From Candidatus Woesebacteria bacterium RBG_13_46_13 (GTDB lineage: Bacteria > Patescibacteriota > Microgenomatia > UBA8517), in assembly GCA_001791995.1 (NCBI GenBank), contig MGFR01000001.1:242638-306637 (forward strand): a stretch of DNA of 64,000 bases, given 5' to 3'. The notes under the pieces are model-generated. The model worked only from the letters and a program-made list of their open reading frames with translations. It was not told the DNA's origin and made no database searches. Shown here in pieces: positions 20,007 to 63,964 of the stretch (the stretch's first letter is position 1; every line of letters starts with the position of its first letter). The position numbers and the translations under genes are program-made.

Positions 20007-20150
20007 AAGAATGTGCGAAGTAATTAATTTAATTCTCGTGAAGGCAAGCAGAATTAAATATTATAAGCAACTTACCGAGTATACACGAATTTACCTATAA
20101 TTGCTTGTAGAGCTAGCTTAGCTGAGCGGGTCGGTCTAGAACCTTATATT

Positions 20151-21371: not shown

Positions 21372-21428
21372 CGGTTTTGAAGGTGTTTTAGGGCTATTCG
21401 AGGCGTCTCGGTCACTGGGGTGCCCTGT

Positions 21429-22686: not shown

Positions 22687-23069
22687 TTCGCTTTCGCATT
22701 AAACATCCGCCTGGTTCTTGTCCAGCCTACGTCCCTTCGGGAATCTTGATCAGAGACCAGCCCTTCCTTGTGAGATCGAGCCTACCGTCCCTTTTCTGCC
22801 GAATAATACCGGCTCTCCTTGGCAACTTGGTTGCCTTACTGTTGAGGAAAGCGTGACGCGTCATCCTCTTCTGAACCCCCTCCGCAAGTTCTACCAGCAG
22901 GAGCAAAGAACAACGCGAGCAACCCAACCTCTTCAGGAACTTTTCGAGCTTGGTGAAGTCGTAGGCAGACACTGTTCCCTCCGCAGAGAATGGTGTTCGG
23001 ACTTACCCAGGCTAGTCGGCGGACATTTAATGTGCGACAGTAGCAAAATTCTACGCTTTAGCCTCAAAA

Positions 23070-23100
23070 TTGTCAACCGATTAGAGAATGTGGGTATAAT
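23070..23100 (+). promoter_or_regulatory. sigma70-like promoter (TTGTCA ... TATAAT) just upstream of the GSDH-like gene
   Basis: -35-like ttgtca at 23070-23075 and tataat at 23095-23100 with a 19-nt spacer. The ORF's TTG start is only 9 nt downstream, so the real start may be internal or the mRNA leaderless. Confidence 0.35.
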
Positions 23101-23108
23101 AAAAAACG

Positions 23109-44402: not shown

Positions 44403-44879
44403 ATGGAGCAGACAGCCACACCTACGCCCACCCCAAAGATACCGGTTGCCATGGGGTCGGTCGTTAAAAAGTTTCCCAAATTCGATATCAAAGGTTCGGC
44501 AATTCTGATCGCAGGGGTGGTTCTGGTGATTTTGGCCGGAATCGGCACCGGCTGGTTACTTTCCGGCAGGGCAAAGATTGCAGGGAGTTCTTCCCAAACC
44601 GTCCCGGGAGCGGAAACCGGTCCCAAGGAAGCCGGATTGGCGGATGAAAAAACATTCAGAGATACAGCTGAGGGAACTTTGGAAGAAGGCGGTATTGCCG
44701 GAGAGGGGACTCACCACTTGGTGCGCGACGGCGGGCCCAGCCAAAATGTGTACCTAACCTCAACCGTAATCGATTTGGAAAGCTTTGTCGGCAAAAAAGT
44801 TCAGGTTTGGGGAGAGACGATATCGGCGCGTAAAGCAGGCTGGCTAATGGATATCGGCAAAATTAAGGTCGTACAATAA
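44403..44879 (+). CDS. hypothetical membrane-anchored protein
   Basis: 158 aa. One TM helix after a Pro/Thr-rich N-terminus. Confidence 0.4.
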   Translation: MEQTATPTPTPKIPVAMGSVVKKFPKFDIKGSAILIAGVVLVILAGIGTGWLLSGRAKIAGSSSQTVPGAETGPKEAGLADEKTFRDTAEGTLEEGGIAGEGTHHLVRDGGPSQNVYLTSTVIDLESFVGKKVQVWGETISARKAGWLMDIGKIKVVQ

Positions 44880-45981
44880 CTCCATCGGGCGTTCTTCCAC
44901 CCAGAAATCCGTCGTCAAAATTATGAAATTCTGCGTATTGGTTTCTTAGCAAATTGAGTGACTCCCGCTCTTTCGCATAATCCGGAAGGGTTTTGCGAAG
45001 AGAAATTGTAAACGTAAGTCTGGCGTCGGAAGGCCAGCTTCTGTGCCTGGCGGGAGATGCGGGATTTACCGGCTCTTCATTTAAGACCAGGTCTGCCGAG
45101 AAAGAAAAATATAAAGGCGGTGAACCCGGCAAAACCCTGAATCTGTAGTCGGAATGTAAGGGGTACCACTCAACCGTTGCGTCGGAGTTGGCCCTGGTTA
45201 TGGCCCTATCCAGGGGGTTTTCTCCATATTGGAGATTGGGGCTGTGGGTTACCCTGGCAACCTCTTCGGTTAGCCCCATCGCACTTGCGAGAAAAACACA
45301 TTTGGACATGGTGGTGACGCTTGCACAGACCCCCCCGGCATCAACATATCCTCCTATCAAAAACCTTTCGGCGTTTCTATGGATTACTCCAGACATATCA
45401 AGGTAAGAATAAACACTTCCGGGGGTAAGAGGTCCATTTTCTTGCTGCCATTCCGAGATGCAGGTTAGGGCGGTTAAAATGTTATATATTTTACTCGGAT
45501 AAATTCTGCTCCTGTCGGAGAATGCATAGGTAGCCACAATATCTTCGTTCTTCCTTCTAAGGCTGCCATTCATGATCTCCATCCTTGATTCATCTTGGCT
45601 AAAGCCAACAACTACATGCATTAAAGGGGGATATATTCCCGTTGCATGGGGAACATCGGCCACCCAAGCAACAGGACCCAGAGCTCCGGGAACCTCATAG
45701 CCTCTTTCCGGTCTAATGGGGGTAAGGATATCCAAAGGGAGCCCGTTAAAATGTACCCACTCCGGATAGTAGTAGGAATTGCCCGGCAAGGTTGAATCAA
45801 TGAGAGAGCCTCCACGGGTCAGAGTCTCTATGTAGACCGGGGTATCCTGGGTAATAAATTTAGGCAAATCGGTCAGGGGTTCGCGGGTTTCAACTTCTTT
45901 AGCTGAGGGGAGGACCATAGAAAAAGCTGCGGTCCCCGCAACTTTTAAAAAATCTCTTCGGCTAAGGCGTTCTTTTTCCAT
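44863..45981 (-). CDS. Tat-signal secreted VanW-like domain protein
   Basis: 372 aa. Twin-arginine signal MEKERLSRRDFLKVAGTAAFSMVLPSA. GGVCASVTTMSKCVFLASAMGL resembles the VanW G(G)GVCQ(V)STTLY motif. Confidence 0.5.
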   Translation of the reverse strand: MEKERLSRRDFLKVAGTAAFSMVLPSAKEVETREPLTDLPKFITQDTPVYIETLTRGGSLIDSTLPGNSYYYPEWVHFNGLPLDILTPIRPERGYEVPGALGPVAWVADVPHATGIYPPLMHVVVGFSQDESRMEIMNGSLRRKNEDIVATYAFSDRSRIYPSKIYNILTALTCISEWQQENGPLTPGSVYSYLDMSGVIHRNAERFLIGGYVDAGGVCASVTTMSKCVFLASAMGLTEEVARVTHSPNLQYGENPLDRAITRANSDATVEWYPLHSDYRFRVLPGSPPLYFSFSADLVLNEEPVNPASPARHRSWPSDARLTFTISLRKTLPDYAKERESLNLLRNQYAEFHNFDDGFLGGRTPDGVIVRP

Positions 45982-46689
45982 TTATTCTTCGGGTATATGG
46001 GGAGAGTTTTTTAACCTCCTTAAGTATCTTTGAATAAGCTCGGCCGGGTCGACAAAAAACCTGTTGATGTAGCTCACTGGAGCTCTATTTGGATACCACC
46101 AGGGGTCTTCCTGCCAGTGGCGCTCAAAAAGCTCGCGGTTGCCGGCATCAAAGTGCAAGTGGCTGAAGCCGTTAGGCCATCCGCTTTTGCCCATTGTTCC
46201 AATAATTTCTCCGGCTCTGTAGTTAGTTCCGACTTCGGCATCCCAGCTGTCCAGATGGCAGTAGCGCGTGTAGATTAAAGTTCCGTCGGGAAGCCTGTGG
46301 CAAAACATGGCAATTTTCCCCAAATCCCTGTAGTCTCCGTCTCCGACAAAAACACAAACGCCGTTCATGATAAGCCTCAGAGGAGTTCCCAAGTCCTCGT
46401 CAAAATCTCCGCAGTTAAAATCGACTCCGATATGATGGCCTCCGTCAAGGGAATAATCCACATTTACGGTTTCCTGAAGATGTCTATAGCCCAGTCCCGG
46501 GAAAACACCGTCCCCCATAATTGCCTCCAGGTCGTTTCCGAAAGGGGGCAAAGAGTAAGTTGCGGTCCTCTCCGGAAAAACATCAAGCGGGAGCTCGGGC
46601 GATTCGCCTTCTTTGCGGGGCATGGCAAAAGAGGCCCCGAGCATTGTCGCAGCTTTCAAAAAATCTCTACGCGATAATTCTTTAGACAT
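45982..46689 (-). CDS. Tat-signal secreted M23-family (LytM) metallopeptidase
   Basis: 235 aa. Tat signal SRRDFLKAATMLGASFAMP. M23 motifs HxxxD (GHHIGVDF) and HxH (FSHLHFD). Confidence 0.75.
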   Translation of the reverse strand: MSKELSRRDFLKAATMLGASFAMPRKEGESPELPLDVFPERTATYSLPPFGNDLEAIMGDGVFPGLGYRHLQETVNVDYSLDGGHHIGVDFNCGDFDEDLGTPLRLIMNGVCVFVGDGDYRDLGKIAMFCHRLPDGTLIYTRYCHLDSWDAEVGTNYRAGEIIGTMGKSGWPNGFSHLHFDAGNRELFERHWQEDPWWYPNRAPVSYINRFFVDPAELIQRYLRRLKNSPHIPEE

Positions 46690-46802: not shown

Positions 46803-46841
46803 ATAGGACAATTTGATTTCTGCCCCAACCTGTCCTATAAT
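46803..46841 (+). promoter_or_regulatory. consensus sigma70 promoter (TTGATT-17-TATAAT) bracketed by an 8-bp inverted repeat
   Basis: ttgatt at 46813-46818 and tataat at 46836-46841. ATAGGACA (46803-46810) is the reverse complement of TGTCCTAT (46831-46838), overlapping the -10. Oriented toward the TadG-like gene. Confidence 0.5.
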
Positions 46842-46972
46842 GCTCTTACTTAACTGATATTCCAGGGGTTGCCCCTGTTGCAAGTATCGTTAACTACAAG
46901 CTCTTTTACAAGGCAAGAGAGAAGATCCGTGTAAGTCAATCTCTCCCGACTCGGGAGGAAAGGAGTAGGAAG

Positions 46973-48058
46973 ATGAACGCTTGGTCTAGAACCAAGGCCT
47001 TCCTGTCGAGAAGGGAGGCCCAGCGTGGCCAGGTGCTTATCATACTGGCCTTCGGGTTGGTGTTTTTGGCGGCCCTCGTCGGTCTGATGATCGATGTGGG
47101 TATCTACACTACCAACAACATCATTGCCCACAACAACGCAGCGGTTGGTTGTGTCACGGCTGCAGAGGCATACCGCAGAGGCGGAAGCGCATCAGGCGCA
47201 TTTGCCGATATTCTGCAGCAAAACGGGATGCAGCCGGCCACCTATTCTCCGAACGAAGGGACGGGTTTAACCCTCACCCGGGGTTTGGAGAATATGGGAG
47301 ACGGAAGCTGGCGGGCAGCTGTCACTTGGCAGCAGCCGACCGGTTTCTTGGGCATCGTGGGAATCCGCGAGATGACAATCCGCGGCAGATCCCGATGCGT
47401 TGGTCGCGACTCTGGGGGACTGGCACCGATTGCCGTTCGGCAAAGTGCCGTTGAGGATTCGCTCTACGGACTCCCCCCCGAGGAGTACAGCATCCTGGGA
47501 CGTGACCCTTCTTGGGATTTGGCGGACGTTGAGTCCGGTACCAACTTCCGGGGAGCGGTCTTTCTCCACATGTGGTGCGTGCCGTCGACTGATCCGAACT
47601 GCCCGAACATCCGCTATTTCTACCCACTGACCGAGGCACCTCCCACAGCCCAGACTCAAAAGAGGCTGGTGGAGGATTGCTTCAGGGGCATCAACTGCTC
47701 GATCTGGCCCGGGGTAGACCAACGCCTGCCAATCGTGGCGGGTACCTCCGACAACCAGATCTGCCATGCTTTTCAGGATGGCGGTTGGGAAGTCGGGGAC
47801 AAGGTGGTGGTCATCGTTTTCGACGGGGAGGTCTATGACCCCGATCCCACTTACGGCAACTGGGAGAATGTGGCCGTCGTGGGCTATGCGGTCTACGAGA
47901 TAACCCAATTTGAGCCGAATCCCAATAACTGCAACAACGTGATCGCTCGGCTCGCCTCGGACAGGATTTACGACAGCCTGGATGACATCCCGGCCGACGT
48001 GATCCTTTTGAGGTCTCGGGAAATCTCGTGGGACTACGGAGGATCAATCCCATGGTAG
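46973..48058 (+). CDS. TadG/TadE-like N-terminal domain (Flp-pilus-assembly pseudopilin-like) protein, high-GC
   Basis: 361 aa. The N-terminus RREAQRGQVLIILAFGLVFLAALVGLMIDVG matches the Tad_N/TadG family. The C-terminal domain is unassigned. Clearly GC-richer than the backbone. Confidence 0.55.
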   Translation: MNAWSRTKAFLSRREAQRGQVLIILAFGLVFLAALVGLMIDVGIYTTNNIIAHNNAAVGCVTAAEAYRRGGSASGAFADILQQNGMQPATYSPNEGTGLTLTRGLENMGDGSWRAAVTWQQPTGFLGIVGIREMTIRGRSRCVGRDSGGLAPIAVRQSAVEDSLYGLPPEEYSILGRDPSWDLADVESGTNFRGAVFLHMWCVPSTDPNCPNIRYFYPLTEAPPTAQTQKRLVEDCFRGINCSIWPGVDQRLPIVAGTSDNQICHAFQDGGWEVGDKVVVIVFDGEVYDPDPTYGNWENVAVVGYAVYEITQFEPNPNNCNNVIARLASDRIYDSLDDIPADVILLRSREISWDYGGSIPW

Positions 48059-48450
48059 CCAGAAGGAAGGACAAGGGACAGGGCCTGGTCGAGTTCGCCT
48101 TGATCGCCCCGATCCTGATACTGCTCCTGCTTTTGGCCATTGACCCCTTCTTCAAGGCGGTCAATATCGCCCTCGCCAAGTACTACACGTTTCAGGCCGC
48201 GCGGGAGGCGTCGATCTTTCTGGCTGACGGGACTCACTCCTGTGATTCCTGGGTCCGCTCACACGTGAGCGAACCTACTCTCCTGATGGGAACCGGCTGG
48301 ACACTTGAAATCGCACCGTGTCCTACCGACTCGTCTTGGAGTCAGGTCAGCGGGAGCACCGTCACTGCTACCTTCAACTGGGAGCAGTCCACCGTCTGGT
48401 GGGAAGGTCCTTGGACCGGAGCGATGGTGACCCGCGACGTCTTCCAGTGA
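48052..48450 (+). CDS. TadE-like protein, high-GC
   Basis: Start at the ATG overlapping the upstream stop (cATGGtag). RKDKGQGLVEFALIAPILILLLLLAIDPFFKAVNIALAKYYTFQAAREA matches the TadE family (PF07811). Confidence 0.55.
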   Translation: MVARRKDKGQGLVEFALIAPILILLLLLAIDPFFKAVNIALAKYYTFQAAREASIFLADGTHSCDSWVRSHVSEPTLLMGTGWTLEIAPCPTDSSWSQVSGSTVTATFNWEQSTVWWEGPWTGAMVTRDVFQ

Positions 48451-48454
48451 GTCA

Positions 48455-48499
48455 GGAGGGTACCTGGTTAGCGACCTAATTGGTCAACAGGTACCCTCC
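48455..48499. terminator. 12-bp perfect-stem hairpin between convergent genes
   Basis: ggagggtacctg (48455-48466) ...21-nt loop... caggtaccctcc (48488-48499). Sits between the TadE-like gene (plus) and the amidase/M23 gene (minus). Confidence 0.5.
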
Positions 48500-48534
48500 G
48501 TACAATCTCTCTTGCCTTGTTAGTTTTTTTGAAG

Positions 48535-50220
48535 TTATTCTTCTCTGAGTTCCCGCGGACTATTTACTTCTTGAGACCTTTGTTCGATAAATTCAACAGG
48601 ATTAATATATCTGTTTCTTATCCATGTAGCATTTACCCCCGAGGGGGCGTAAGGTCTATGGCCCATATCGGTGTCCCAGGTGGCCCCATAGGCAATCGCC
48701 AAATGCAGATGGCTGTCGAGTTGTCCGCCCGAGGCGCCCATTGTGCCTATCACCTGGCCTTTTCGGGTAATTACCCCAACCCTGAGGTTAATATCGTTTA
48801 AGTGTCCGTAAAGACTGATTACCTCGCTGCCTTCGGGTAGTCGATGGCGGATGATGACGGTTTTACCCAGCCCATGGCCCGGAATTTCTTCTGCGTAAAT
48901 ACACTCGCCGTTGGCAACGGCCTTGATGGGTGTTCCCAAATCGGAATTGATTACTCCTTGAGGACCCGTATTAATATCTACACCTTCGTGATTTTCGGGA
49001 CTTAGATAGGTATTGCCCAATCTGATGTCTCCATCGATGGGCATTCTGAAAGAATCCGCAATCGGGATGGGTGCTCCTTCCCTAAAGGCCGCATCATAGA
49101 CTTCCCAGTATTTACTTCTTGCTTCCCAGTCGAATACTTCAACAGGGTACCCCCAGGTCGTTAAAACCAGATAGTCCCGGATGAATTTAAAATATCTTCT
49201 GGCTGCTTCTTTTTTATCTACCCCGTCCCTTTCGAAAGGTCCAAAAACAAGCTCCTTGGCAGCATTTTCCTCTTCGGTTAAGGCTTTAGCGCCCAATAAA
49301 AGCTTTAACTCGGCCAGATAGGCCCTGCCGGGATCTATTCTATCCAGTTGAACTTCGTAGTGACCCACAAGGTTAGTGGCGGGAATGCTGTCTCTTTTCA
49401 TAATGGCCCAGATAACGCTTAAGAGATTAGCCGTTTTTTGATTATCGGGATGGGTCTCCGAGTCGAAATCTCTACCGGTTACCTCTATTGCCCAGGAATA
49501 CCAGTTGGGGTCGGTGGAGCGGCGAAACCAGTCTTGGGCCGGAGAGATTACCCCTTGGGGAAATCCATTTTCCCTGCCCAGCCGATAAAGAGAGCTTAGG
49601 TAATGGTTAGCGCCCCTGTTGTATCCTTCGTAATCCAAGGGAATGGCGATGTGGGAGGCAAGAGTTGCGTCTCCCAACCTCGGGGTTTGCGTTTGGACAA
49701 TTGAGACAGGGCTTTCAAGTGTTGCCGGTGCCCCCGGGGGAATACTGCCGACCAGAAAATGGGCACTGGTTGTTGTTTCGTAGGATGTTCCTCCCAGGGT
49801 AGAGATATTTCTGCGTCCGTCAAAACCCCAAATATAATTTTGGATGGTGGTTTCGGGATCCGCCGAATCCGAAAACCAGTGCAGCACTATTGCCCTGGGC
49901 CTGTCCGTTCTTAACCTGTCGGCCTCACGATTTCTCCGCCGGCTCCATTCGGTGGGGAAAAACGGTGCTTGTCCGCGGATGGCCCCGTTTCTGCCCAAAA
50001 GAGACAGAAACCCGTCTTCGTTGATTAGGGTCGGTGGGGTTAACTCGATGATGCCCCTGGGGTATTCGGGGAGTCTATCCAGCGATAGAGTGGGCCATTC
50101 GCCCTCCGGAGGAAGGGATCGCAAGGATTCTGGAACAAAAGCAGATGCCGCAGTCAATCCGCTAAGTTTGAGAAAGTCCCTTCTTGATAATTTATCCAAA
50201 CCGTCTGTTTCCTTCATCAA
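48535..50220 (-). CDS. Tat-signal secreted bifunctional cell-wall hydrolase: N-acetylmuramoyl-L-alanine amidase-like (Amidase_2) + C-terminal M23 peptidase
   Basis: 561 aa. Tat signal LSRRDFLKLSGLTAASAFVP. The middle region (RAIVLHWFSD...TTSAHFLVGS) is Amidase_2/PGRP-like. The C-terminus carries M23 HxxxD (HEGVDIN) and HxH (SHLHLAI) motifs. Confidence 0.65.
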   Translation of the reverse strand: MMKETDGLDKLSRRDFLKLSGLTAASAFVPESLRSLPPEGEWPTLSLDRLPEYPRGIIELTPPTLINEDGFLSLLGRNGAIRGQAPFFPTEWSRRRNREADRLRTDRPRAIVLHWFSDSADPETTIQNYIWGFDGRRNISTLGGTSYETTTSAHFLVGSIPPGAPATLESPVSIVQTQTPRLGDATLASHIAIPLDYEGYNRGANHYLSSLYRLGRENGFPQGVISPAQDWFRRSTDPNWYSWAIEVTGRDFDSETHPDNQKTANLLSVIWAIMKRDSIPATNLVGHYEVQLDRIDPGRAYLAELKLLLGAKALTEEENAAKELVFGPFERDGVDKKEAARRYFKFIRDYLVLTTWGYPVEVFDWEARSKYWEVYDAAFREGAPIPIADSFRMPIDGDIRLGNTYLSPENHEGVDINTGPQGVINSDLGTPIKAVANGECIYAEEIPGHGLGKTVIIRHRLPEGSEVISLYGHLNDINLRVGVITRKGQVIGTMGASGGQLDSHLHLAIAYGATWDTDMGHRPYAPSGVNATWIRNRYINPVEFIEQRSQEVNSPRELREE

Positions 50221-50348
50221 GAGTGTACTTTAAATGGTGAGAATTTTGAATACTTTAATAAAGTGAAGTGCTGGAGCAGGGATATCCTTGTGAGGATATT
50301 GTCATCTTGCGATGACCCCCTGCTCCAGCAAAGTGCTTCGTGTGCTTG

Positions 50349-51971
50349 TTAGTTAGCCCTGACGTAGCCCATCCGCTCGAATTCCTCGATACGGGATTCC
50401 CCGACTTCGATGGGGATTTGGGTGGTTGGATGAATCATTTTCACCCTGCCCTCCGTATGCTCCGGATCGGGACTGTAGCGGATTCCCCTCATGGTTTCGG
50501 GCTGGCGTGGTCTGGTGGGCTCATCGACCTGGACGGGAACCTGTTCGGCTCCTATCCTTCTGGGGCGACCGCCCTTGGCGCGGAGCTTGTTGTCCTCCAC
50601 CTCCAGACGTTGGTTGACGCGTTGCTCGCGCTTGGCCATCGCCTCATCGATTGCATTGGTGACTTCGATGAGGTGGCTCCATTGGTAGGTAGCCCACAAG
50701 GCGGGGACTTCAGTCCCAAGCCTGACCAAAACGCTGTCCCAGTTGGGATCTTCGGGGAGACTGACCTGATAGCCATCCGTAAGTACGGTCTCTTTCTCTT
50801 TGAGATCCGCGACCCGTTTCTGCAGGGCCAGGATGACTTTCTGCCAGTTAACAAGTTCCCCGACGTCCTTGGCGGCGCTGTCCAGCTGCGCTCCGATTTC
50901 TCCGAGGACCAGATCCAGCTCGTCCCACTTGTGGACATCCGCCCACAAGACTGGAACATGCTGGGTGAGTACCCCCGAGACTTCGACAAGCGCATCCGGC
51001 TCGGAAGGCACTGCGCCTTCGACGAGCGAGTCGTTCAGGAACTGGACGAAGCGGTCCCTGGTGGAATCCAGCCTGGCCTCCAGTTTTGCAATGTCGGAAG
51101 CCTTCTTGATGAATCCGTGCTGGATATCCGCTGAGGCCTTCTCCACGAACTCGGCGATGACCTCGGGGTCGGTTCCTTGCTCCTTGGCCAGGGCAATCTG
51201 ACTCCTACACCAGACGATGTAGGGCCGTATCATGCCCAGCTTCAGAATTTTGGATCCGTCCCCAACCGGAGATTCGGAGAGCTCCAGAAGTCCAGGAATA
51301 TTCCTGGACTTAGCGAGAGCCCTATGGCTCCGCTCCTTGCGTACGAGGTAGCCGAGGGCATAGCGGAAAGCCTTTTCGGCACCCGCCAGCCTCTTCCACC
51401 GACGTGCACGTTCCAACTCCTCAGCCTTCTTGAGTTTCTCGTGCTCCTCGATGAGAACCGGGAGCTCGATTGGGGTAATCTTGCGACCGCCCCAAAACTG
51501 GTTGGGAGTTGTTGCGTACTCCAGTTTCTCAATGAGCTGTTTCTGCTCTCGGGCCAATGTTTCAGTTCTGGCCAAGAGCTTCTTCAAGCCCTTGATGGAG
51601 TACTGCGATATCTGCAGGAATCGGTCGGGGGCTTTATCCTCCTGATACCAGAAGGTTACCCACCAACCCCAGAAACCGCCGAGCCTCTCGGTCAGAGGCG
51701 GGGAGAGTTCCTGGTAAGCGTCGTACACGCTGGTGTAGAGCTTTTCGATTTCTCCGCAGATGTTGACTGCCTTTCCACCGACCCTGATGACGATGTCGCG
51801 GTAGTCGAAATAGAGCTTACCGGTCCACGTCCACTCCTCCTCGATGCTGTTCCAGAGCTCGGTAATCGCAAGCATCAACTTGCGCTTGTTTCTCCCGTGG
51901 ACAACCAGGAGGATTACCGAGAAAACCAGTAGGGCGACCATAATGCCACCCCGAATCCAAAGGCCGTTCAT
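50349..51971 (-). CDS. hypothetical membrane-anchored 540-aa protein, GC-rich orphan
   Basis: Longest ORF of the patch, with an N-terminal TM (IMVALLVFSVILLVV) and no recognisable domain. The plus-strand ORFs 50340..51134 and 51177..51932 are treated as shadow ORFs of this GC-rich gene. Confidence 0.45.
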   Translation of the reverse strand: MNGLWIRGGIMVALLVFSVILLVVHGRNKRKLMLAITELWNSIEEEWTWTGKLYFDYRDIVIRVGGKAVNICGEIEKLYTSVYDAYQELSPPLTERLGGFWGWWVTFWYQEDKAPDRFLQISQYSIKGLKKLLARTETLAREQKQLIEKLEYATTPNQFWGGRKITPIELPVLIEEHEKLKKAEELERARRWKRLAGAEKAFRYALGYLVRKERSHRALAKSRNIPGLLELSESPVGDGSKILKLGMIRPYIVWCRSQIALAKEQGTDPEVIAEFVEKASADIQHGFIKKASDIAKLEARLDSTRDRFVQFLNDSLVEGAVPSEPDALVEVSGVLTQHVPVLWADVHKWDELDLVLGEIGAQLDSAAKDVGELVNWQKVILALQKRVADLKEKETVLTDGYQVSLPEDPNWDSVLVRLGTEVPALWATYQWSHLIEVTNAIDEAMAKREQRVNQRLEVEDNKLRAKGGRPRRIGAEQVPVQVDEPTRPRQPETMRGIRYSPDPEHTEGRVKMIHPTTQIPIEVGESRIEEFERMGYVRAN

Positions 51972-52163
51972 CGAATCCTCCTTAGGCTGTTAGCCTGTGA
52001 TACCAGATTTTTGCACACAAAGCTGTTAAGGTGCGCCCTCTTCGGGCATACGGAATAATACCTCCTCGCTGGTTAAAAATCAAATAATATAGGATGTAAG
52101 CTTGTTTTGGCGACTAGCTTTAGTTGCTTTCATTTGCTACCCTAAGAAAGAATAATTTCTGCC

Positions 52164-52904: not shown

Positions 52905-53815
52905 ATATCCATTTCAAAACCGCATTCGATTATATAAAAAGGGCTCCTTTTCAGGCCCTATCGGCCATCTCGGTTCTGACCCTGACCTTCTTCGTATCGA
53001 CAATGGTGGCAGTTCTGGCCTATTCATCCGGCAATCTCCTGAAGTATTTCGAGACCAGACCTCAGGTAATTGCCTTCCTTAAAAATGAAGTTACCCCCCA
53101 GGATGTTTCGGCGCTTCAAAACAAACTCACCGCGGATGAGCGGGTGAAAGAGGTCCGCTATGTTTCCAAAGAAGAAGCTCTAAACATTTACAAAGAGGCC
53201 ACATCAGATAACCCGCTATTATCGGAACTGGTCAGCCCGTCGATTTTCCCGGCGTCTTTGGAGTTTTCCTTGGCAAATTTAAGTTATGCGGAGGATATTA
53301 TTGCCCAGGTTAAAAAAGAATCTATTGTCGACCAGGTCGGTTTTACCGCCAGCCTTGGGGGAGAATCTACCCTTCAGGACGTTGTTTCCAGGCTCAAAAC
53401 CATCACCCTTTATGTCAGAATTGGGGGTATGGTTTTGGTCGGGATGCTGGGTGCCGTGTCGTTTCTGGTGCTTATCGTCATCATCGGCATGCGGATGGCA
53501 ACCCGCAAGGGGGAGATTGAAATACTGGATTTAATCGGGGCCACCCCGAAATTTATCCGGAGCCCGATTGTCATTGAAGCTCTGATTTATTCCTTTGCCG
53601 GGGTACTCTTGGGCTGGGCCATATCGTTTCTCTTTTGGCTCTACGTAACCCCCAATATCGTTGCCTACTTTGGGGAAATCCCGGTTCTGCCCAAAGGCAC
53701 TTGGGATTTTCTTATCCTGCTGGTAATTATTTTGGGGGCGGAGCTTTTGATTGGTTCTTTATTGGCGCTTTTGGGAAGCATGCTTGCGGTCTCCCGTGCC
53801 AAGAGAACCCGATGA
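52901..53815 (+). CDS. ftsX: cell-division permease-like protein FtsX
   Basis: 304 aa. Four TM helices with a large first extracellular loop. Overlaps the ftsE stop. Confidence 0.8.
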   Translation: MNIHFKTAFDYIKRAPFQALSAISVLTLTFFVSTMVAVLAYSSGNLLKYFETRPQVIAFLKNEVTPQDVSALQNKLTADERVKEVRYVSKEEALNIYKEATSDNPLLSELVSPSIFPASLEFSLANLSYAEDIIAQVKKESIVDQVGFTASLGGESTLQDVVSRLKTITLYVRIGGMVLVGMLGAVSFLVLIVIIGMRMATRKGEIEILDLIGATPKFIRSPIVIEALIYSFAGVLLGWAISFLFWLYVTPNIVAYFGEIPVLPKGTWDFLILLVIILGAELLIGSLLALLGSMLAVSRAKRTR

Positions 53816-54939
53816 GAGAAACAGTAAAAAAAATTCTTCTTCTGGCCACAGTCTTTGCTCTCGTCTTCTTCGGTCTAAAAATTAGAAATGTCTTGGCCGA
53901 GGCCTGCGCAGACAAGACAAATCTCAACGACAGAATTAACTGCTACGAGGATGAGCTTTCCCGCCTTGGGGCGCAATCCAAAACTCTTTCTAACCAGATT
54001 GCCCAGTTCGATGCCCAGATAAAACTCACCACCCTTAAGATATCCCAGACAGAGGAAAAAATTTCTCTTCTGGGAGGAAGGATAGACCAGCTGGAAGGCT
54101 CTCTGGATGCTCTTTCGGCCGCATTTAGCTCAAGAGCGGTAGAAACCTACAAGATGGCCAGGGTCGGGGACCCGGTTTTACTTATCGTTTCGGCTCCGGA
54201 TTTGGGTGGAGCAATTTCGAGATTCCACTATTTGCAAAGAATCCAGGAGGCGGACAGGGATTTACTGCAAAAGCTTCAGACCGCCCAAGATACATATAAG
54301 GTAGAAAAGACCGACCAGGAGCAACTGCAGGATGAGCTTGAGAAACAGAAAGCCAACTTAGATGCGCAGAAGAAAGCAAAAAATGCACTTTTAGCCCAGA
54401 CCAAAAACGACGAAAAGAGATATCAGCAGCTTTTGAGTCAGGCCATTGCGGAGAAAGCAGCAGTTGAGCGGGCGCTGGTGTCCGGTGTCAAAGTTGGCCC
54501 GGTTAAAAGAGGCGATCCAATAGCTTTGGTAGGTAACTCCGGGTATCCGGGTTGCTCTACGGGAAAGCATTTACACTTTGAAATCCGAAAAAACAATACG
54601 TGGGTGGATCCGGGAGGCTATCTCTCCGGAAAAACCGTCATCGATGAACAAAACGGAGGAGGTAACGTCAGCTTGGGCTCGGGTAGCTGGCCTTGGCCAA
54701 TAGAAGATACGGTTCGCCTCACACAATTTTATGGGCATACTCCGTATTCTTGGAAGTATGCCTACTCGGGCGGGCTCCACACCGGATATGACATGGTTTC
54801 AACTTCAAGCGATGTAATAAGAGCTCCTGCGGACGGAACTCTCTTTAAGTCTGCACAATCCTGTGGCTCCAGTACAATAAACATCGCTTACATCGAGCAT
54901 GGGGATAATGTGGTTAGTCTTTATCTCCACGTCCAGTAA
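53812..54939 (+). CDS. EnvC-like coiled-coil M23 peptidase-domain protein (FtsEX-associated), with an additional C-terminal M23-like module
   Basis: Start at MRETVKK (ATG overlapping the ftsX stop, ATGA). TM/signal, coiled coil, M23-like GNSGYPGCSTGKHLHFEIR, and a second HxGxD...HxH-like segment (GLHTGYDM...LYLHVQ). Confidence 0.7.
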   Translation: MRETVKKILLLATVFALVFFGLKIRNVLAEACADKTNLNDRINCYEDELSRLGAQSKTLSNQIAQFDAQIKLTTLKISQTEEKISLLGGRIDQLEGSLDALSAAFSSRAVETYKMARVGDPVLLIVSAPDLGGAISRFHYLQRIQEADRDLLQKLQTAQDTYKVEKTDQEQLQDELEKQKANLDAQKKAKNALLAQTKNDEKRYQQLLSQAIAEKAAVERALVSGVKVGPVKRGDPIALVGNSGYPGCSTGKHLHFEIRKNNTWVDPGGYLSGKTVIDEQNGGGNVSLGSGSWPWPIEDTVRLTQFYGHTPYSWKYAYSGGLHTGYDMVSTSSDVIRAPADGTLFKSAQSCGSSTINIAYIEHGDNVVSLYLHVQ

Positions 54940-58199: not shown

Positions 58200-58997
58200 T
58201 TGAAATATGTATTATTATTTCTATACATGAGAAGGTTAGTTTTCTTAGGCTTCGCTTTCGCTTTCCTTTTTGGGTTATTTATGACCCCTGTTCTTTCGGC
58301 AAAACCGACTGATATCCCCGAAGAAGACGGGATTTATGACGAGCCAGGACATCCCGGAGTGAAAGTTAGGGTTTTTGTGCACAGGGAAAGACCTGCTAAG
58401 CCCAGTACACCACCCACCCTTGTTTGTGAACTCACCGACCCGAGTTCCCCCGCTATCGTTGGAAAAGAGGCCTGGAAACTGCCATCAACTTGGACTTATA
58501 ACCTAAATCCTTCCAGTGTTCCTGCCTCGGTCGGCTCCGGAAGTTTGCAAACAATTGCAGCAAACGGATTTAATGATTGGCAGAGCGCATCCGGGAATAA
58601 AGTCCATTTTGCCAGAGGCTCGGATACGACAGTCTCGAGACAAGCGTATGACGGCGTTAACGTAGTTACCTGGGGAAGAACTTCAGGAAGCGCCTTGGGG
58701 GTTACCTATATAAGGTATAACGGTACAACAGGTGAGGCTTTAGACGTGGATACTATTATGAATAGCAAGTTTACCTGGAGCTGGTCAAACTCCGTTAGTT
58801 GCGCCTACTCTTCAACCTATGATGCGGAAAATATTATGACCCACGAGCTGGGACACTGGCTGGGTTTGACCGATGAGTACGATGCAGCCAACTATCAAAA
58901 CGCGACAATGTACGGATATGGCGCCAAAGGAGAAGTGAAGAAAGTTACCTTAACCACTGGAGATAGCGCGGGCGCATTCGCTATCTATAATCCTTGA
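58200..58997 (+). CDS. secreted metzincin zinc metalloprotease (snapalysin/M7-like HExxHxxGxxD with Met-turn)
   Basis: 265 aa with signal peptide. HELGHWLGLTDEYD (compare snapalysin HETGHVLGLPD) and a downstream Met-turn-like ATMYGYG. Confidence 0.65.
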   Translation: MKYVLLFLYMRRLVFLGFAFAFLFGLFMTPVLSAKPTDIPEEDGIYDEPGHPGVKVRVFVHRERPAKPSTPPTLVCELTDPSSPAIVGKEAWKLPSTWTYNLNPSSVPASVGSGSLQTIAANGFNDWQSASGNKVHFARGSDTTVSRQAYDGVNVVTWGRTSGSALGVTYIRYNGTTGEALDVDTIMNSKFTWSWSNSVSCAYSSTYDAENIMTHELGHWLGLTDEYDAANYQNATMYGYGAKGEVKKVTLTTGDSAGAFAIYNP

Positions 58998-59590
58998 TGA
59001 CAAAACCCAAAATACTTCATTTTTTGGGAAACCTTTTAATCTTCATCGCTGCCGTAATTTTGGTTCTTACCTTTACTCCCGTATTTGAGCAGGAAGCCAA
59101 GTACCAGATCAAGCACACTTTCAATTCGCCTTACAAAGAAAAAGATTTAACCCCGCCCAATACGGATTTTGCCATCGTCATACCCAAAATAGGTGCGGTT
59201 GCACCGGTTATTGCCAACACCGACCCCTTGGACCCCAAAAAATACATGCCCGTTTTGTATAAAGGGGTTGCCCACGCCAAAGGAACGGCTTTCCCCGGAG
59301 AGTTTGGAAACACTTATATTTTCGCCCACTCGACGGACACTTTTTATAATGTGGGCCGCTATAACGCCGTTTTTTACCTGATTGGCAAGCTCGAGAAGGG
59401 GGACGAGATAGATATTTACTATAAGGGTGAGAAGATCGTCTATGAGGTAGTGGAAAAGAAGGTTGTTGGGGCTGATGCCGTAAAGTATCTGGGGAAGCTG
59501 GGAGAGTGGAACACCTTGACTCTGCAGACCTGCTACCCACCGGGGACAACCCTTAAAAGGCTGGTAGTTGTGGCCAATGAAAAAATATAG
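58994..59590 (+). CDS. sortase (TLxTC catalytic motif)
   Basis: 198 aa. N-terminal TM anchor, catalytic His region (YIFAHST) and the active-site TLQTC motif. Confidence 0.8.
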   Translation: MMTKPKILHFLGNLLIFIAAVILVLTFTPVFEQEAKYQIKHTFNSPYKEKDLTPPNTDFAIVIPKIGAVAPVIANTDPLDPKKYMPVLYKGVAHAKGTAFPGEFGNTYIFAHSTDTFYNVGRYNAVFYLIGKLEKGDEIDIYYKGEKIVYEVVEKKVVGADAVKYLGKLGEWNTLTLQTCYPPGTTLKRLVVVANEKI

Positions 59591-59647
59591 GCCCATAATT
59601 TGACAATTAAAGACAAAAAATGTATAAATCACTAACTGCCCCAATAA

Positions 59648-62600
59648 ATGAGCCAAAAACTGCTTAAACGCGTCTTTTCGGCCATAGCCGCATTTTCACT
59701 TCTGGTGAACTCTATTTCCGCGCCTCTTACGGTTTACGCACAGAACGCTGGAAATTCTCCATTAGCCGCCGATCCGCCCCATACGCCTAATCCATCCGGA
59801 AACCTTGACCAATGTAGCAATGGATCCTCAGTTTCTCCCACGAATCCTTGCACTTGGGTAAATGGAAACCTGAATAGCAATCAAGCACATTATGTAGAAG
59901 GACAATCGGTGCCATATAGACTTATCATGGAAGATTTGCCGGTCTCCTCGTCTATAACCCTGACGCTAGGATATGATATCAAACACAGTGATAAGCACGC
60001 TCTTGATTACTTAACCCACTTTAACCGATTAGAACCCCACAGCCCTTTTGGGCATACTGCTGAAACGATAGACCCAGCAAGTGGGATATCTGGACTATCT
60101 GCGACGGTGACAACCTATTCAATCCCGTCCCCGAGCTCGGTTGGTTCACCAGTGAGTGGGCAACCAACAACAAGTTTTGATGCGCTTCCAGCTGGGGAAA
60201 AATTGATGACTCTCTATGGTGGAACAATTAACGATATCGTTTACAACACTCAGGGGGACCTAACCGATTCACAAGCAGAGACAAGAATAGATATCATTTT
60301 TACCGCTGATAGCGCGACCGCTGTCTTAGCTTGGGGGGGTCATATTGCGAGTAGACTCGACTGGGGTTTTGATGGGTTAACCCCCAGATCGGCCAGCGGA
60401 ATTAGCGGTTCCCCTTATCACATGAGGCAGATAAGCTGGACTATAGGAAATCTGGGGAATCAAGACAGGTCTCTACAGGCAGGAGCAGTGATACCTCCTG
60501 GAAATTTGACTATCATTAAGCAGATAGAACCACCTGATTCTACTCTTTGGGATTTTTCTGTGACAGGCCCCAATAGCTATACAAACAGTATTCAGGACTT
60601 GGGGGATGGAGGTCAATCGGTATTGAGCGTGGCCCCAGGAACATACACCATAACCGAAACAACCAGTCAGGATTATTCCCCAAGTGTTACCTGCAACACG
60701 GGCGAAAGTGGCTCCGGAAGCGTCCAGGTTGATATTTCTTCGACAGAGAACGTGGTGTGCACTTTTGTAAACACCCTACAGCCGGCCCATTTGACGCTGG
60801 TTAAAACAATTACGATTGACAATGGAGGTGTAGCCACAGTAGCTGATTGGACTTTAAGCGCAAGTGGAACCACACCAATTTCAGGAACTTCTGGAAGCGG
60901 TGCAGTTACAAATGCAGCAGTATATTCGGGAACATACTCTCTCTCCGAGAGTGGGCCTTCAGGCTATACCCCGAGTGCCTGGAGTTGTATTAAAAACGCA
61001 GGGCAACCTATAGAAGGAAATTCGATAGTTCTCGCTCCGAACGATACGGCGGTTTGTACGATTAACAATGACGACATTTCTCCTTCGCTCACACTTGATA
61101 AGGTGTTGATCAAGGACAATGGAGGCAATGCACAGGAAAGCGACTGGACCCTAACCGCAACTGGTCCGACGCCTCTTTCTGGTCCTGGGGCGGCCGGCTC
61201 TGCAGATGTTGTAAGCGGATCAGGATTTTCAGCTGGGACTTATACTCTTTCCGAATCAGAAGGACCAGAGGGGTATTCTTCTAGCGCCTGGAGTTGTACA
61301 GGAACGGCTACCCAAAACGGAAACGAGATTACTCTAGCATTGGGTCAAACAGCCACCTGTACTGTTACAAATAATGATATTGCACCGACTCTTACCCTCG
61401 TCAAGACAGTATCGAACGACAATGGAGGAACAAAAGTCGTTTCCGATTTCCCGCTTTTTATAAACGGCGTTTCCGCCACAAGCGGGGTTGCCTACCCCTT
61501 AATGGCCAATACGCTCTATACGGCAACAGAAACACAGGATGAGGATTATCAAGCATTTCCTTGGGGTACGGACTGTGCACCAGATGGCACCATAACTCTC
61601 CAGCTTGGGGAGAATAAAACTTGCACAATTTTGAATGACGATATTGCTCCCACATTAACTTTGGTAAAGAGCGTTTTCAATGATTACGGGGGCAATAACC
61701 TCGTTTCCGATTTTTACCTCTATATCAACGATCTTTTGGTAACAAGCGGGGTACCAAATACCCTTAACGCAGGAAGTTATACAGCTAGCGAAGGCCCGTT
61801 GTCAGGCTATACTCCTTCAAGCTGGGGTGGCGATTGTAGTGCAGGCGGGGCAGTGACGCTTCTTCCGGGAGATAATAAAACCTGTACTATATCAAACAGC
61901 GATACCCCGGCGTCAATAACTTTGACTAAAGTTGTAATTAGTGACAATGGCGGAAACGCTGGAGTCAACGACTTTGGTTTAAGTATAGGTGGCGCCCCCG
62001 TCAGTTCTGGGACTACAAGGCAAGTAAATTCGAATACTCCGATTACCATAGACGAAATTGGCCTTACGGGCTACGGTTTCGTTTCGATAACAGGCGATGC
62101 GAAGTGTCCGGCACAGTTGGGTGGAACAGTAACCCTGAATGAAGGAGAAAGCGTAAGTTGTACCATAACGAACGATGATGAGGCGCCAACTATCACTTTG
62201 GTTAAAGATGTCATAAATGACAATGGAGGGTTAGCTGGAGAAAACGATTTTGGCCTAACAATAGGTGGAACAGGGGTAAATTCAAATCAAACCCTAACCG
62301 TTGTTGCAAACACCCCGTACGTCATTACCGAGGCCGGAAAGACGGGCTACGCGTTTGTGTCAATATCCGGCGCAGGCTGTCCGGCTGAGCTCGGGGGAAC
62401 AGTTACTCCTAACGAAGGGGAAGATATTGTTTGTACCATTACAAACGATGATGTTTCCCCGACCGTAACCTTAAATAAAATAGTCAGAGGGGGAGAGGCA
62501 GGAGTCAACGACTTTGGCTTAACGGTTGGAGGGCAGGGAGTCAATTCCGGCCAAACAGTAAATGTAACAGCCAACACCCCGATTGGATTAAACGAAGCAG

Positions 62601-63964
62601 GCCTTGACGGCTATAGTTTTGATTCGATAACAGGTGCCGGTTGCCCATCTACATTAGGAGGAACCGTTACTTTAGGCGAGGGAGGAAGCATCACCTGTAC
62701 AATTATTAACACGAGAGATATTGGAGATATCTCGGGTTATAAATTTGAAGACCTGAACGGTAACGGAGATTGGGATGACGGTGAACCCGGATTGGCGGGT
62801 TGGACGATCGAGCTCTGGGGTGGGCAGGAAGACTTAATCGATTCTACGGTAACCTCAGCAGATCCCCTCGGAGAATACGGGTTTGAGAATATTCCGACTG
62901 GTGAGTATGCTGTTTGCGAGGTATTAGAGGACGGCTGGACACAAACTTATCCTCAAGGATGCCATTTCTTCACTCTTACGAAAGAAGGCATACAAGGATT
63001 AGATTTTGGCAACTTTAGGTTGGCCTCAATCGGGGACTTTATTTGGCGAGATAATGATGGGGATGGACTACAAGACCCAGGGGAACCAGGGATAGTAGGA
63101 ATTGGGGTAAACCTATATCTTGATGACGACGGAACCCCGGGATTAAATACTTCCACAGACTTACTAGTTGCCAGTGACATAACCGACGGAACCGGGGCAT
63201 ATCTGTTTGAAAATCTTGGCCCGGGCGAATACTTCACAGACGTTATCGAATCTACTTTGCCTGTAGGGTATTCCAATACGACCCCAGATCCTGTTGGGCC
63301 TATTATTTTGAGCTCCGGTGAAATCTATCTGCTTGCAGACGTCGGCTATGTTCCTCCCGTCAAGGAAATCAGAATCGAAAAGTCGAACGATAAGGAAGGC
63401 GGAGCAACAGCTGGAGATATCGTTACTTATTCTTTAGTTATTTCAAACACGGGAGATGTGGCTATCGGCGACGTAATCGTGACGGATGTATTACCCGGCG
63501 GATTCATATATGAAAACGGATCAACTTCAATCACAGGGGCTCCAGATGTTGAACCTGGAGTGGCGGGAAGTATTCTTACTTGGGATATCGGCACAGTATT
63601 TCCCAAAGAGCCGGTTACGATTATTTACCAGGCAAAAATTTCCTCGGAGCTGCCGGCAGGATCTTACAAGAACTATGCAACTTGCGAGGGACAGATAGGG
63701 GGAATTATTCCCCAGAATGGACCAGAGGAACGTGTTGCTGTGTATGAATCGGAACCGATAAGCTGTAATATCGATGATTCGGATGTTTCACTTGGTCAGT
63801 CCTTTAGCTACGGCGGAAAGCTTACGCCCCAGGTTTTAGGTGCGGCAACCGAACTTCCCGCTACGGGTAACTCAACCGGAATTCTGATCTTTGCCATCGC
63901 CGCAGGTCTTGGGGGATTTGCTCTTAAGCTGAGAGAAAAGAGGACAAAACATGCAAAAAACTAA
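59648..63964 (+). CDS. giant LPxTG-anchored surface protein with tandem Ig-like (prealbumin/SdrD-B-like) repeats and a DUF11-like domain
   Basis: 1438 aa with signal peptide. Seven or eight tandem repeats of about 95 aa (PTLTLVKxVxNDNGG...CTITNDD), SdrD-B-like segments (GYKFEDLNGNGDWDDGEPGLAGWTIEL), a DUF11-like region (DIVTYSLVISNTGDVAIGDVIVTDVLPGGFIY), and a C-terminal sorting signal LPATG (63854-63868) plus hydrophobic stretch plus KLREKRTKHAKN. Confidence 0.8.
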   Translation: MSQKLLKRVFSAIAAFSLLVNSISAPLTVYAQNAGNSPLAADPPHTPNPSGNLDQCSNGSSVSPTNPCTWVNGNLNSNQAHYVEGQSVPYRLIMEDLPVSSSITLTLGYDIKHSDKHALDYLTHFNRLEPHSPFGHTAETIDPASGISGLSATVTTYSIPSPSSVGSPVSGQPTTSFDALPAGEKLMTLYGGTINDIVYNTQGDLTDSQAETRIDIIFTADSATAVLAWGGHIASRLDWGFDGLTPRSASGISGSPYHMRQISWTIGNLGNQDRSLQAGAVIPPGNLTIIKQIEPPDSTLWDFSVTGPNSYTNSIQDLGDGGQSVLSVAPGTYTITETTSQDYSPSVTCNTGESGSGSVQVDISSTENVVCTFVNTLQPAHLTLVKTITIDNGGVATVADWTLSASGTTPISGTSGSGAVTNAAVYSGTYSLSESGPSGYTPSAWSCIKNAGQPIEGNSIVLAPNDTAVCTINNDDISPSLTLDKVLIKDNGGNAQESDWTLTATGPTPLSGPGAAGSADVVSGSGFSAGTYTLSESEGPEGYSSSAWSCTGTATQNGNEITLALGQTATCTVTNNDIAPTLTLVKTVSNDNGGTKVVSDFPLFINGVSATSGVAYPLMANTLYTATETQDEDYQAFPWGTDCAPDGTITLQLGENKTCTILNDDIAPTLTLVKSVFNDYGGNNLVSDFYLYINDLLVTSGVPNTLNAGSYTASEGPLSGYTPSSWGGDCSAGGAVTLLPGDNKTCTISNSDTPASITLTKVVISDNGGNAGVNDFGLSIGGAPVSSGTTRQVNSNTPITIDEIGLTGYGFVSITGDAKCPAQLGGTVTLNEGESVSCTITNDDEAPTITLVKDVINDNGGLAGENDFGLTIGGTGVNSNQTLTVVANTPYVITEAGKTGYAFVSISGAGCPAELGGTVTPNEGEDIVCTITNDDVSPTVTLNKIVRGGEAGVNDFGLTVGGQGVNSGQTVNVTANTPIGLNEAGLDGYSFDSITGAGCPSTLGGTVTLGEGGSITCTIINTRDIGDISGYKFEDLNGNGDWDDGEPGLAGWTIELWGGQEDLIDSTVTSADPLGEYGFENIPTGEYAVCEVLEDGWTQTYPQGCHFFTLTKEGIQGLDFGNFRLASIGDFIWRDNDGDGLQDPGEPGIVGIGVNLYLDDDGTPGLNTSTDLLVASDITDGTGAYLFENLGPGEYFTDVIESTLPVGYSNTTPDPVGPIILSSGEIYLLADVGYVPPVKEIRIEKSNDKEGGATAGDIVTYSLVISNTGDVAIGDVIVTDVLPGGFIYENGSTSITGAPDVEPGVAGSILTWDIGTVFPKEPVTIIYQAKISSELPAGSYKNYATCEGQIGGIIPQNGPEERVAVYESEPISCNIDDSDVSLGQSFSYGGKLTPQVLGAATELPATGNSTGILIFAIAAGLGGFALKLREKRTKHAKN
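60500..62720 (+). repeat. tandem array of about 285-nt coding repeats (Ig-like domains) inside the giant adhesin gene
   Basis: Seven or eight diverged copies, each starting P(S/T)LTL(V/D)K...DNGG and ending CT(I/V)xNDD. Confidence 0.7.

Follow-up and report, generated by a model that had tools for sequence, protein, structure and literature searches.

Two overlapping open reading frames (ORFs) of Candidatus Woesebacteria bacterium RBG_13_46_13, here termed ORF1 and ORF2, are best read as orphan minor pilins that make up a "tip" module for a type IV filament of Tad/Flp (type IVc) flavour, a reading to which we assign a probability of roughly 0.55. They lie in a stretch of 64,000 nucleotides (contig MGFR01000001.1, positions 242,638 to 306,637), the whole of which was analysed and is called the window below; coordinates refer to it unless a locus is named. 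The reading rests on the family identity of the two proteins, their prepilin motifs, the pilin-like order of secondary-structure elements, the orphan status of the pair, the conservation of the cassette and the existence of phage copies. An earlier interpretation of the DNA (the sequence-only reading) had noted a pair of TadG/TadE-like genes rich in guanine and cytosine (GC) without secretion machinery nearby. This observation is confirmed with small corrections, and the interpretation that accompanied it is supported in part. New here are the phage copies, one of which carries a Flp-like pilin, a helical partner protein that recurs beside the pair, a conserved promoter and leader, and a 15-nt inverted repeat that brackets the genes.

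46973-48058, plus strand: ORF1, 361 aa, a TadG-like large minor-pilin-like protein with an N-terminal RGQ followed by a hydrophobic helix, and with eight Cys
48052-48450, plus strand: ORF2, 132 aa counted from ATG, a TadE-like small pseudopilin with the prepilin motif KG/QGLVEF and two invariant Cys

The two frames share 7 nt (ATGGTAG), rather than the 4 nt (ATGG) reported earlier, and the homologues of ORF2 share its start ATG (Met). The gene content of the window is typical of Patescibacteria, with SecDF, RelA, aminoacyl-tRNA synthetases, Lon, SecA, RF2, FtsEX and many M23 peptidases.

Family identity of the two proteins

The TadG/TadE-like identity that had been proposed for the pair is supported for both proteins, directly for ORF2 and through its relatives for ORF1. 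ORF2 scores 25.2 bits against the Pfam TadE family (PF07811; cut-off 22.9) over residues 9-31, and several of its homologues also have precomputed matches to this family. Its class III signal reads KG/QGLVEFALIAPIL, with Gly at -1 and Glu at +5, and runs into a hydrophobic helix; residues G9, Q10, E14, C64 and C90 are invariant in the 15 ORF2 sequences aligned. A profile of the ORF2 family found nothing significant among PDB sequences.

The Pfam family Tad (PF13400) is matched by 15 of 34 aligned members of the ORF1 family, the best at E = 1.2e-06. In phmmer searches, residues ~17-160 of ORF1 align to proteins of 600-800 aa that bear PF13400; two of these also show sub-threshold matches to Tad_C (PF09977), and one, from Kallotenue (Chloroflexota), is named as TadG-related. 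A search of 5.8 billion clustered proteins gave 25 relatives of ORF1 at E <= 1e-3, and one of 1.84 billion representatives gave 81; all named full-length homologues are from Patescibacteria, including candidate division WWE3. The 34 aligned sequences, at 23-89% identity to ORF1, retain intact motifs, Cys residues and reading frames. The N-terminus, RGQVLIILAFGLVFLAALVGLMIDVG, is a hydrophobic helix ending in a D-x-G motif; within the family, G19 and Q20 (both part of the RGQ) do not vary, nor do several Cys, and Glu at +5 is absent. Both ORF1 and ORF2 have Gln at +1.

An AlphaFold2 (AF2) model of ORF1, with a predicted local distance difference test (pLDDT) score of 86.5, contains a helix (residues 2-68), a sheet of four strands (103-156) and an extra domain (157-361). 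Judged on the order of secondary-structure elements only, this suggests a pilin-like module joined to an accessory domain, and the eight Cys would fit an extracytoplasmic location. A profile of the ORF1 family gave nothing significant against PDB sequences, and searches of Pfam, PDB and BFVD revealed in ORF1 neither a C-terminal vWA domain nor another of the known adhesion domains that TadG proteins often carry.

A candidate tip module apart from its machinery

In the mechanism that we propose, ORF1 and ORF2 would enter the membrane by their N-terminal class III signals, and a prepilin peptidase encoded elsewhere would cut both at G/Q. The mature end of ORF2 (KG/QGLVEF) would carry Glu at +5, and that of ORF1 (RG/QVLII) would lack it, as expected of the tip-most subunit. 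With a conserved promoter and structured leader of its own to drive expression, the pair would jointly prime or cap a filament whose assembly machinery is encoded at another site, and the Cys-rich C-terminal domain of ORF1 would be the exposed functional end, serving adhesion or partner recognition. We infer cleavage, filament incorporation, location at the tip and the machinery used.

The earlier statement that Tad machinery is missing nearby agrees with every search that we made, and type IV pilus (T4P) machinery was not found either. Pfam searches over essentially all large ORFs of the window gave no T2SSE/TadA (cpaF) ATPase, no TadB/C and no A24 prepilin peptidase, precomputed Pfam annotation of the 8 kb adjoining the start of the window showed no Tad or T4P machinery, and a motif scan of the window yielded no Flp-like ORF. 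Regular expressions for TGSGK[ST], GGGDxK and G[FM]TLIE found nothing in the called genes of the window and 29 further loci (~496 kb; individual loci are labelled L001 and so on below), and the N-methyl motif of type IVa pili (T4aP), G/[FM][ST][LI][IVL]E, was absent from six-frame translations of the same set. Of the genes that accompany a TadE-family gene in a tad/cpa locus (tadA/cpaF, tadB/C, tadV/cpaA and flp), none was found in the window plus 8 kb or in ~10-kb flanks of seven genomic contexts, apart from one Flp-like ORF in a phage contig.

Some of these results weigh against a tip module. Neither a filament ATPase nor a platform protein, prepilin peptidase or major pilin was seen in the 64 kb plus 8 kb, and the ~10-kb flanks of the pair in the seven contexts likewise showed no filament machinery. 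ORF1 itself has no Pfam match at E <= 0.1 and no NCBIfam match, and a Foldseek comparison of its model with PDB and BFVD returned nothing at E < 0.1. There are only two pilin-like genes, against three in the Tip complexes described below, and the partner protein encoded close to the pair is an uncharacterised helical membrane protein without a place in known Tad or T4P systems.

A parallel for separately encoded tip genes is found in the Kil pilus of Myxococcus xanthus, which has four interchangeable TadE/F/G (KilL/M/N) "Tip" complexes, with Tip4 assigned to kil-gene cluster II and each other Tip to a tip-gene cluster distinct from it, and whose large TadG-like subunit has a C-terminal domain without a PDB homologue (PMC12075869). 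Like the Kil Tips, the pair combines a small TadE-type pseudopilin that carries G/xxxxE[FY] with a large TadG-type subunit, made of a pilin-like N-terminal part and a C-terminal domain of unmatched fold, and like the Myxococcus tip clusters outside kil-gene cluster II, it lies away from any machinery. Unlike the Kil Tips, in which three genes (TadE/F/G) are co-encoded, the chromosomal cassettes have two pilin-like genes, to which the phage forms add an ORF of 79-85 aa or a Flp-like pilin. Moreover, no copy of the family is seen next to machinery, the host is a monoderm-like Patescibacterium, in a group where T4aP rather than Tad has been described, and the pair has its own conserved promoter and leader, a flanking 15-nt repeat, phage relatives and a recurrent helical membrane partner, all of which set it apart from the Kil system.

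In type II secretion the tip pseudopilin is GspK, which is larger than the other minor subunits, has no Glu at +5 and carries an inserted domain that caps the filament. ORF1 likewise is without Glu at +5 while ORF2 has it, but PDB searches detected no sequence or fold similarity to GspK for ORF1, and there is no type II secretion system (T2SS) context. Among Patescibacteria themselves, T4P machinery (PilBCDT, including PilD) has been reported in most or nearly all members, and TM7x has a further pilin locus apart from the two machinery loci (PMC11623550; PMC10469934). PilX1 and PilX2 of Saccharibacteria TM7x are large, carry extra C-terminal domains and are proposed tip proteins, although they are not predicted to have a canonical PilD signal (PMC11623550). 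The pair resembles PilX1 and PilX2 in its Patescibacteria host, in having a large pilin-like protein with an extra C-terminal domain and in the separation of its genes from machinery. No sequence relationship to the TM7x proteins was found, though no search aimed at one was made. The Tad/Flp-type N-termini of the pair (G/Q, no Phe at +1) are unlike those of the T4aP-type TM7x pilins.

To our knowledge, every Patescibacterium so far brought into culture lives attached to another microbe. Attachment is mediated by type IV pili in Saccharibacteria TM7x, the one lineage tested experimentally (PMC11623550). A portable tip module would be a concrete candidate for setting or changing partner specificity in Patescibacteria, to which the tip-type pilins with a novel exposed domain, the phage-carried relatives and a swapped allele of a neighbouring gene are all relevant. 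If a normal pilD/pilBC or tad locus exists elsewhere in the genome, the two genes would be fairly ordinary orphan minor pilins.

Chromosomal and phage contexts

Homologous pairs were found at four kinds of chromosomal site and in phage or phage-like contigs.

Context 1 (window, L004, L005/L006/L013, L011, L012): prfB...M23, pair, M23-amidase, gene of ~540-560 aa, ftsEX
Context 2 (L001/L008/L010): pair adjoining mraZ-mraW and a penicillin-binding protein (PBP) gene
Context 3 (L007/L016): unrelated site
Context 4 (L017/L018): pair after rpsB-tsf-frr-rseP
Phage context (L009, IMG/VR UViG_3300037518_000230): gene row at 10007-12022, contig with large and small terminase genes
Phage-like contexts (L002/L003/L014/L015 and L019/L020): Erf-like, replication-initiator, methylase and HTH_17 genes

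In relatives with 69-94% protein identity, the position of the pair is unchanged. Three of the chromosomal contexts share its promoter, leader and both genes, and related pairs are found in the fourth and on phage contigs; the unit has therefore moved as a cassette, and this movement is real. Judged by its named homologues, the cassette is old, conserved and restricted to Patescibacteria and their phages.

The phage contig L009 has three such genes in a row: a TadG-like gene, a TadE-like ORF (EKG/QSLVEF) and an ORF whose end is a textbook Flp-type pilin, GRG/QSMLEYAILIVLVAIIVLVILSLLGPSIGNLFSNVVSNV, with a weak match to Pfam Flp_Fap (19 bits). All three pilin-like proteins of this row have motifs of the KG/Q or RG/Q type. 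A Walker A motif of the T2SSE type is absent from ~50 of the 60 kb of this contig (positions 10076-60209 of 60209), so the phage pilin module probably depends on host machinery. A second, four-gene form in the phage-like contigs consists of a TadG-like gene, an ORF of 79-85 aa, a TadE-like gene and a membrane-anchored helical protein of 283-291 aa (L002 9070-12537; L019 5786-8458), and in L002 a sortase gene lies immediately upstream of it. As a separate observation, the protein encoded directly upstream of the L009 row is secreted and, as read from its translation, has an LPXTG-like C-terminal sorting signal.

These contexts raise the question of whether the pair is a phage-derived moron for surface conversion, which would alter or block the type IV filaments of the host (for example in superinfection exclusion or partner attachment) and of which the chromosomal copies would be domesticated forms. 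We consider this quite unlikely, and it overlaps with the tip-module reading rather than excluding it. The terminase-bearing IMG/VR contig and the elements L002, L003, L019 and L020, with their Erf-like, replication-initiator, methylase and HTH_17 genes and an adjoining sortase, favour such an origin, as do the LPXTG-like neighbour in L009, the outlying composition of the pair in low-GC hosts and the exchange of the partner gene for a 22%-identical allele where ORF1 is 81% identical. Nevertheless, the chromosomal cassettes are syntenic across diverged relatives and have no phage genes around them, a search of IMG/VR with the leader pattern found no match to the leader-bearing form, GenBank phages gave no tblastn match to either ORF1 or ORF2, and PADLOC, run on the pair, the partner and their neighbours, recognised no defence family.

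Promoter, leader and bracketing repeat

The pair is framed by a series of elements, all on the plus strand.

46803-46810 and 46831-46838, plus strand: 8-bp inverted repeat ATAGGACA/TGTCCTAT over the promoter, operator-like, unique in the window
46813-46841, plus strand: sigma-70-type promoter TTGATT-17-TATAAT, 10/12 consensus positions
46848-46972, plus strand: 5' leader of ~125 nt, with elements conserved in leader-bearing loci
46863-46877, plus strand: 5' hairpin of the leader, CAGGGG/CCCCTG
46908-46922, plus strand: purine motif of the leader, ACAAGGCAAGAGAGA, the left arm of the 15-nt inverted repeat
46943-46957, plus strand: leader hairpin CTCCCGA/TCGGGAG
46953-46965, plus strand: Shine-Dalgarno-like run GGGAGGAAAGGAG, just before the ORF1 ATG
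48455-48499, plus strand: 3' hairpin after ORF2, with a perfect 12-bp stem, GGAGGGTACCTG/CAGGTACCCTCC
48506-48520, plus strand: right arm TCTCTCTTGCCTTGT, the exact reverse complement of ACAAGGCAAGAGAGA, starting six nt after the 3' hairpin
48524-48530, plus strand: run of seven T after TCTCTCTTGCCTTGT

The promoter had been described as perfect; it is present and conserved in relatives, but departs from the consensus at two of the 12 positions. Its -10 hexamer is invariant and its GGACAATTTGATT -35 region conserved in loci of different genomic contexts. The 2.3-kb region scanned shows no enrichment of promoter-like sites as such (2 against 1.4 expected). The 8-bp inverted repeat, which had been taken to suggest repressor control, is likewise real, with no match in 100 shuffles, and it is kept in L004, L005 and L011. 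It is degraded in L012 and absent in L001 and L016, however, and the case for control by a repressor is accordingly weak.

The leader elements are conserved at the DNA level in L004, L005, L011, L012, L001/L010 and L007/L016, that is, in three contexts and at ORF1 identities down to 50%. In L016 the hairpin next to the Shine-Dalgarno run is retained through changed bases (CTTCC/GGAAG). A leader profile searched with nhmmer over ~500 kb of sequence matched solely upstream of this gene pair, and Rfam offered no family for the leader at gathering or permissive thresholds. The conserved leader and the bracketing 15-nt repeat form a compact regulatory feature without an Rfam match. The overall folding energy of the leader is ordinary (z = -0.48), and RNAalifold supports two short hairpins only, with one compensatory pair. 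At the 3' end, a strong hairpin stands at the equivalent spot in all leader-bearing loci, with a different sequence in L016 and L012. The promoter, leader and 3' elements are under purifying selection, while synonymous sites are only 35-47% identical.

The perfect 15-nt inverted repeat brackets the coding segment in the window, with the promoter outside the left arm. Its arms recur with 0-1 mismatch in L001/L010, L004, L005/L006/L013, L011, L012 and L007/L016 as well as in the window, and a 13-nt core is invariant; they are absent from L017 and the phage copies. One possible role is base pairing between the ends of the mRNA. Pairing of a 3' with a 5' untranslated region (UTR) occurs in icaR of Staphylococcus aureus and hbs of Bacillus subtilis. 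The similarity to these cases lies in a conserved 3' segment that could pair without mismatch with part of the 5' leader, both on what is putatively one transcript. Unlike in icaR and hbs, the pairing partner is a purine motif ~20 nt upstream of the Shine-Dalgarno hairpin and not the Shine-Dalgarno sequence itself. The invariant arms give no covariation and are compatible both with 5'UTR-3'UTR pairing and with sites for a protein or recombinase.

Alternatively, the 15-nt repeats could be recombination sites at which the 1.6-kb segment inverts relative to a fixed promoter, as in a phase-variable, inverton-like switch; the inverted state would then give the junction GCTCTTTTACAAGGCAAGAGAGATTGTACGG, composed of left flank, repeat and inverted interior. 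Inversion switches classically act on genes for surface proteins and pilins, perfect repeats bracket the coding segment with the promoter outside, and arms conserved despite 35-47% synonymous identity fit recognition by a protein better than RNA pairing. The orientation is, however, identical in all nine assemblies or loci examined (the window, L001, L004, L005, L010, L011, L012, L013 and L016), and no recombinase family was found in the flanks of loci of the window type or the L001 type. A single orientation without a nearby recombinase is a mild argument against a switch, and the arms also fit mRNA pairing; we regard inversion as very unlikely.

Composition and origin of the pair

ORF1 and ORF2 are the GC-richest coding sequences of the window. 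Their GC contents are 0.583 and 0.594, against a mean of 0.476 over 51 window genes (standard deviation (sd) 0.042; z = 2.5 and 2.8), and their GC contents at third codon positions (GC3) are 0.702 and 0.752, against 0.517 (sd 0.087; z = 2.1 and 2.7). The marked GC richness claimed for the pair is thus borne out by a compositional outlier of z 2.1-2.8, although the 540-aa partner gene at 50349-51971, which comes next in the window (GC 0.571, GC3 0.717), shares the excess. In chromosomal loci with a genome GC of 0.40-0.49 and sizeable flanks (L001, L004, L005, L007/L016, L010 and L012), the pair exceeds its flanks by ~7-15 points in every one, whereas in the WWE3-like L017, with a genome GC of ~0.58, it is compositionally native.

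The excess does not look recent. Four-fold sites under identical amino acids in ORF1 are 35-47% identical between the window and other leader-bearing loci, while GC3 of the pair stays at 0.67-0.76 in all leader-bearing loci except L007/L016 (0.50-0.56). We infer that the excess is maintained and not a fading trace of recent transfer, because GC3 has remained high while these sites have diverged so far. Recent transfer as such was rejected because the pair is syntenic in relatives and its synonymous sites are poorly identical. Codon bias linked to expression was also considered as a cause and rejected, because the HU gene of the same genome has a GC3 of 0.50.

The proposal of a high-GC insert acquired horizontally is therefore only partly upheld. 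A unit that moves as a cassette agrees with it, but occurrence at the same site in relatives and the maintained GC3 contradict a recent foreign insert. Since the named full-length homologues are all from Patescibacteria and the pair is native in L017, a donor pool, if any, would more likely lie among higher-GC Patescibacteria and their phages than in a foreign phylum. The further suggestion that the genes are captured cargo, which in its plainest form means inert DNA recently obtained from a high-GC foreign donor, has in its favour GC and GC3 values 2-3 sd above those of the window genes. It is contradicted by the conservation of the pair at one site in relatives, by motifs, Cys and frames intact over 23-89% identity, by the purifying selection on promoter, leader and 3' elements and by the restriction of named full-length homologues to Patescibacteria, and it is hardly credible.

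A bolder version of the tip-module reading would treat the whole unit as a self-contained, exchangeable "pilus-tip cassette", comprising promoter, leader, TadG-like gene, TadE-like gene and terminator, with its bracketing 15-nt repeat and maintained GC signature, that is exchanged among Patescibacteria lineages and has related pairs in their phages. Such a cassette might re-tool the tip of a resident filament and so alter host or partner recognition or phage susceptibility, with the repeat exerting control by pairing of mRNA ends or by DNA inversion. We offer this only tentatively, as an improbable whole that still deserves consideration.

Partner gene and neighbourhood

Beyond an M23-amidase gene, the pair is followed by a convergent gene for a helical protein, referred to here as the partner.

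50349-51971, minus strand: partner gene, 540 aa; an N-terminal transmembrane segment leads into RNKRK, and the remainder is predicted to be all-helical
L004 12037-13710 and L012 3729-5402: genes at the partner position in relatives
48535-50220, minus strand: M23 peptidase/amidase_2 protein, 561 aa, with a signal of the twin-arginine translocation (TAT) type and ordinary GC; listed as context, with no membership of the module implied

A helical partner of ~500-560 aa adjoins the pair in three chromosomal contexts. Homologues are a convergent 528-aa gene in L017 (11549-13135; E = 7e-10) and a 507-aa gene in L007 (8350-9873; E = 2e-9), both beside the pair; beside the pair in L001, the partner is absent. 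The partner has no match in Pfam, PDB or PADLOC, and its AF2 model is of low confidence (pLDDT 56). Between the window and L004 the proteins at the partner position are 22% identical, whereas ORF1 is 81% identical, which points to replacement of the partner by a distant allele or to very fast evolution. In the window, the partner has a promoter-like site of its own, TTGATT-17-TATTAT, and a 3' hairpin with a 12-bp stem, GCTGGAGCAGGG/CCCTGCTCCAGC (50221-50348 and 51972-52163, minus strand). These flanking signals resemble those of the pair in style but are without the ACAAGGCAAGAGAGA motif.

The recurrence of the partner bears on a further alternative, in which ORF1 and ORF2 are not pilus subunits but stand-alone, membrane-anchored envelope proteins that act in remodelling or division together with the helical partner and cell-wall hydrolases. 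Consistent with this are the three chromosomal contexts in which partner and pair adjoin, the M23 peptidases flanking the pair in the window and L017, the FtsEX genes and a further M23 gene downstream in loci of the window type, the abutting mraZ-mraW-PBP genes in L001 and the fact that filament machinery is seen near no copy. Nevertheless, the G/Q with Glu at +5 of ORF2 and the GQ of ORF1 are hallmarks of filament subunits processed by a peptidase, and a phage copy is joined to a Flp-like pilin. Adjacency is also weak evidence, because such small genomes are densely packed with M23 and division genes. In L001 the pair lacks the partner as a neighbour, and the partner matches no EzrA-like or other family and is poorly modelled. 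We judge this alternative unlikely. The related suggestion that the pair acts with adjacent hydrolases gains weak support from M23 genes next to it in two of the four chromosomal contexts, as such genes are frequent in the window.

The surroundings of the pair are unusually dense in hydrolases. Four secreted proteins are encoded within 10 kb of it (44863-46689, minus strand; 48535-50220, minus strand; 53812-54939, plus strand). Three have TAT-like signals, namely a 372-aa protein of unassigned family, a 235-aa M23 peptidase and the 561-aa M23 and amidase_2 protein, and the fourth is the product of an M23-like gene after ftsEX.

Three other regions of the window stand out. The segment 22001-23000 has a GC content of 0.567, well above its neighbours; its sole ORF, of 173 aa (22718-23239), has no Pfam match and overlaps the start of a GSDH/NHL-like gene. 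A low-GC island at 17345-21458 (GC 0.35-0.43), beside tRNA-Gln (21430-21503), looks like an acquired defence-type islet and encodes a CAP12/Pycsar-type TIR effector domain (20151-21458, minus strand), an ATP-grasp RimK-like protein (18870-20006, minus strand) and a DUF4352 protein. Finally, at 58994-63964 a sortase gene is followed by a gene for a 1438-aa protein that combines SpaA-type prealbumin-fold repeats with SdrD_B and DUF11 domains; encoded 11 kb from the Tad-like pair, it is a candidate adhesin or pilus subunit anchored by sortase.

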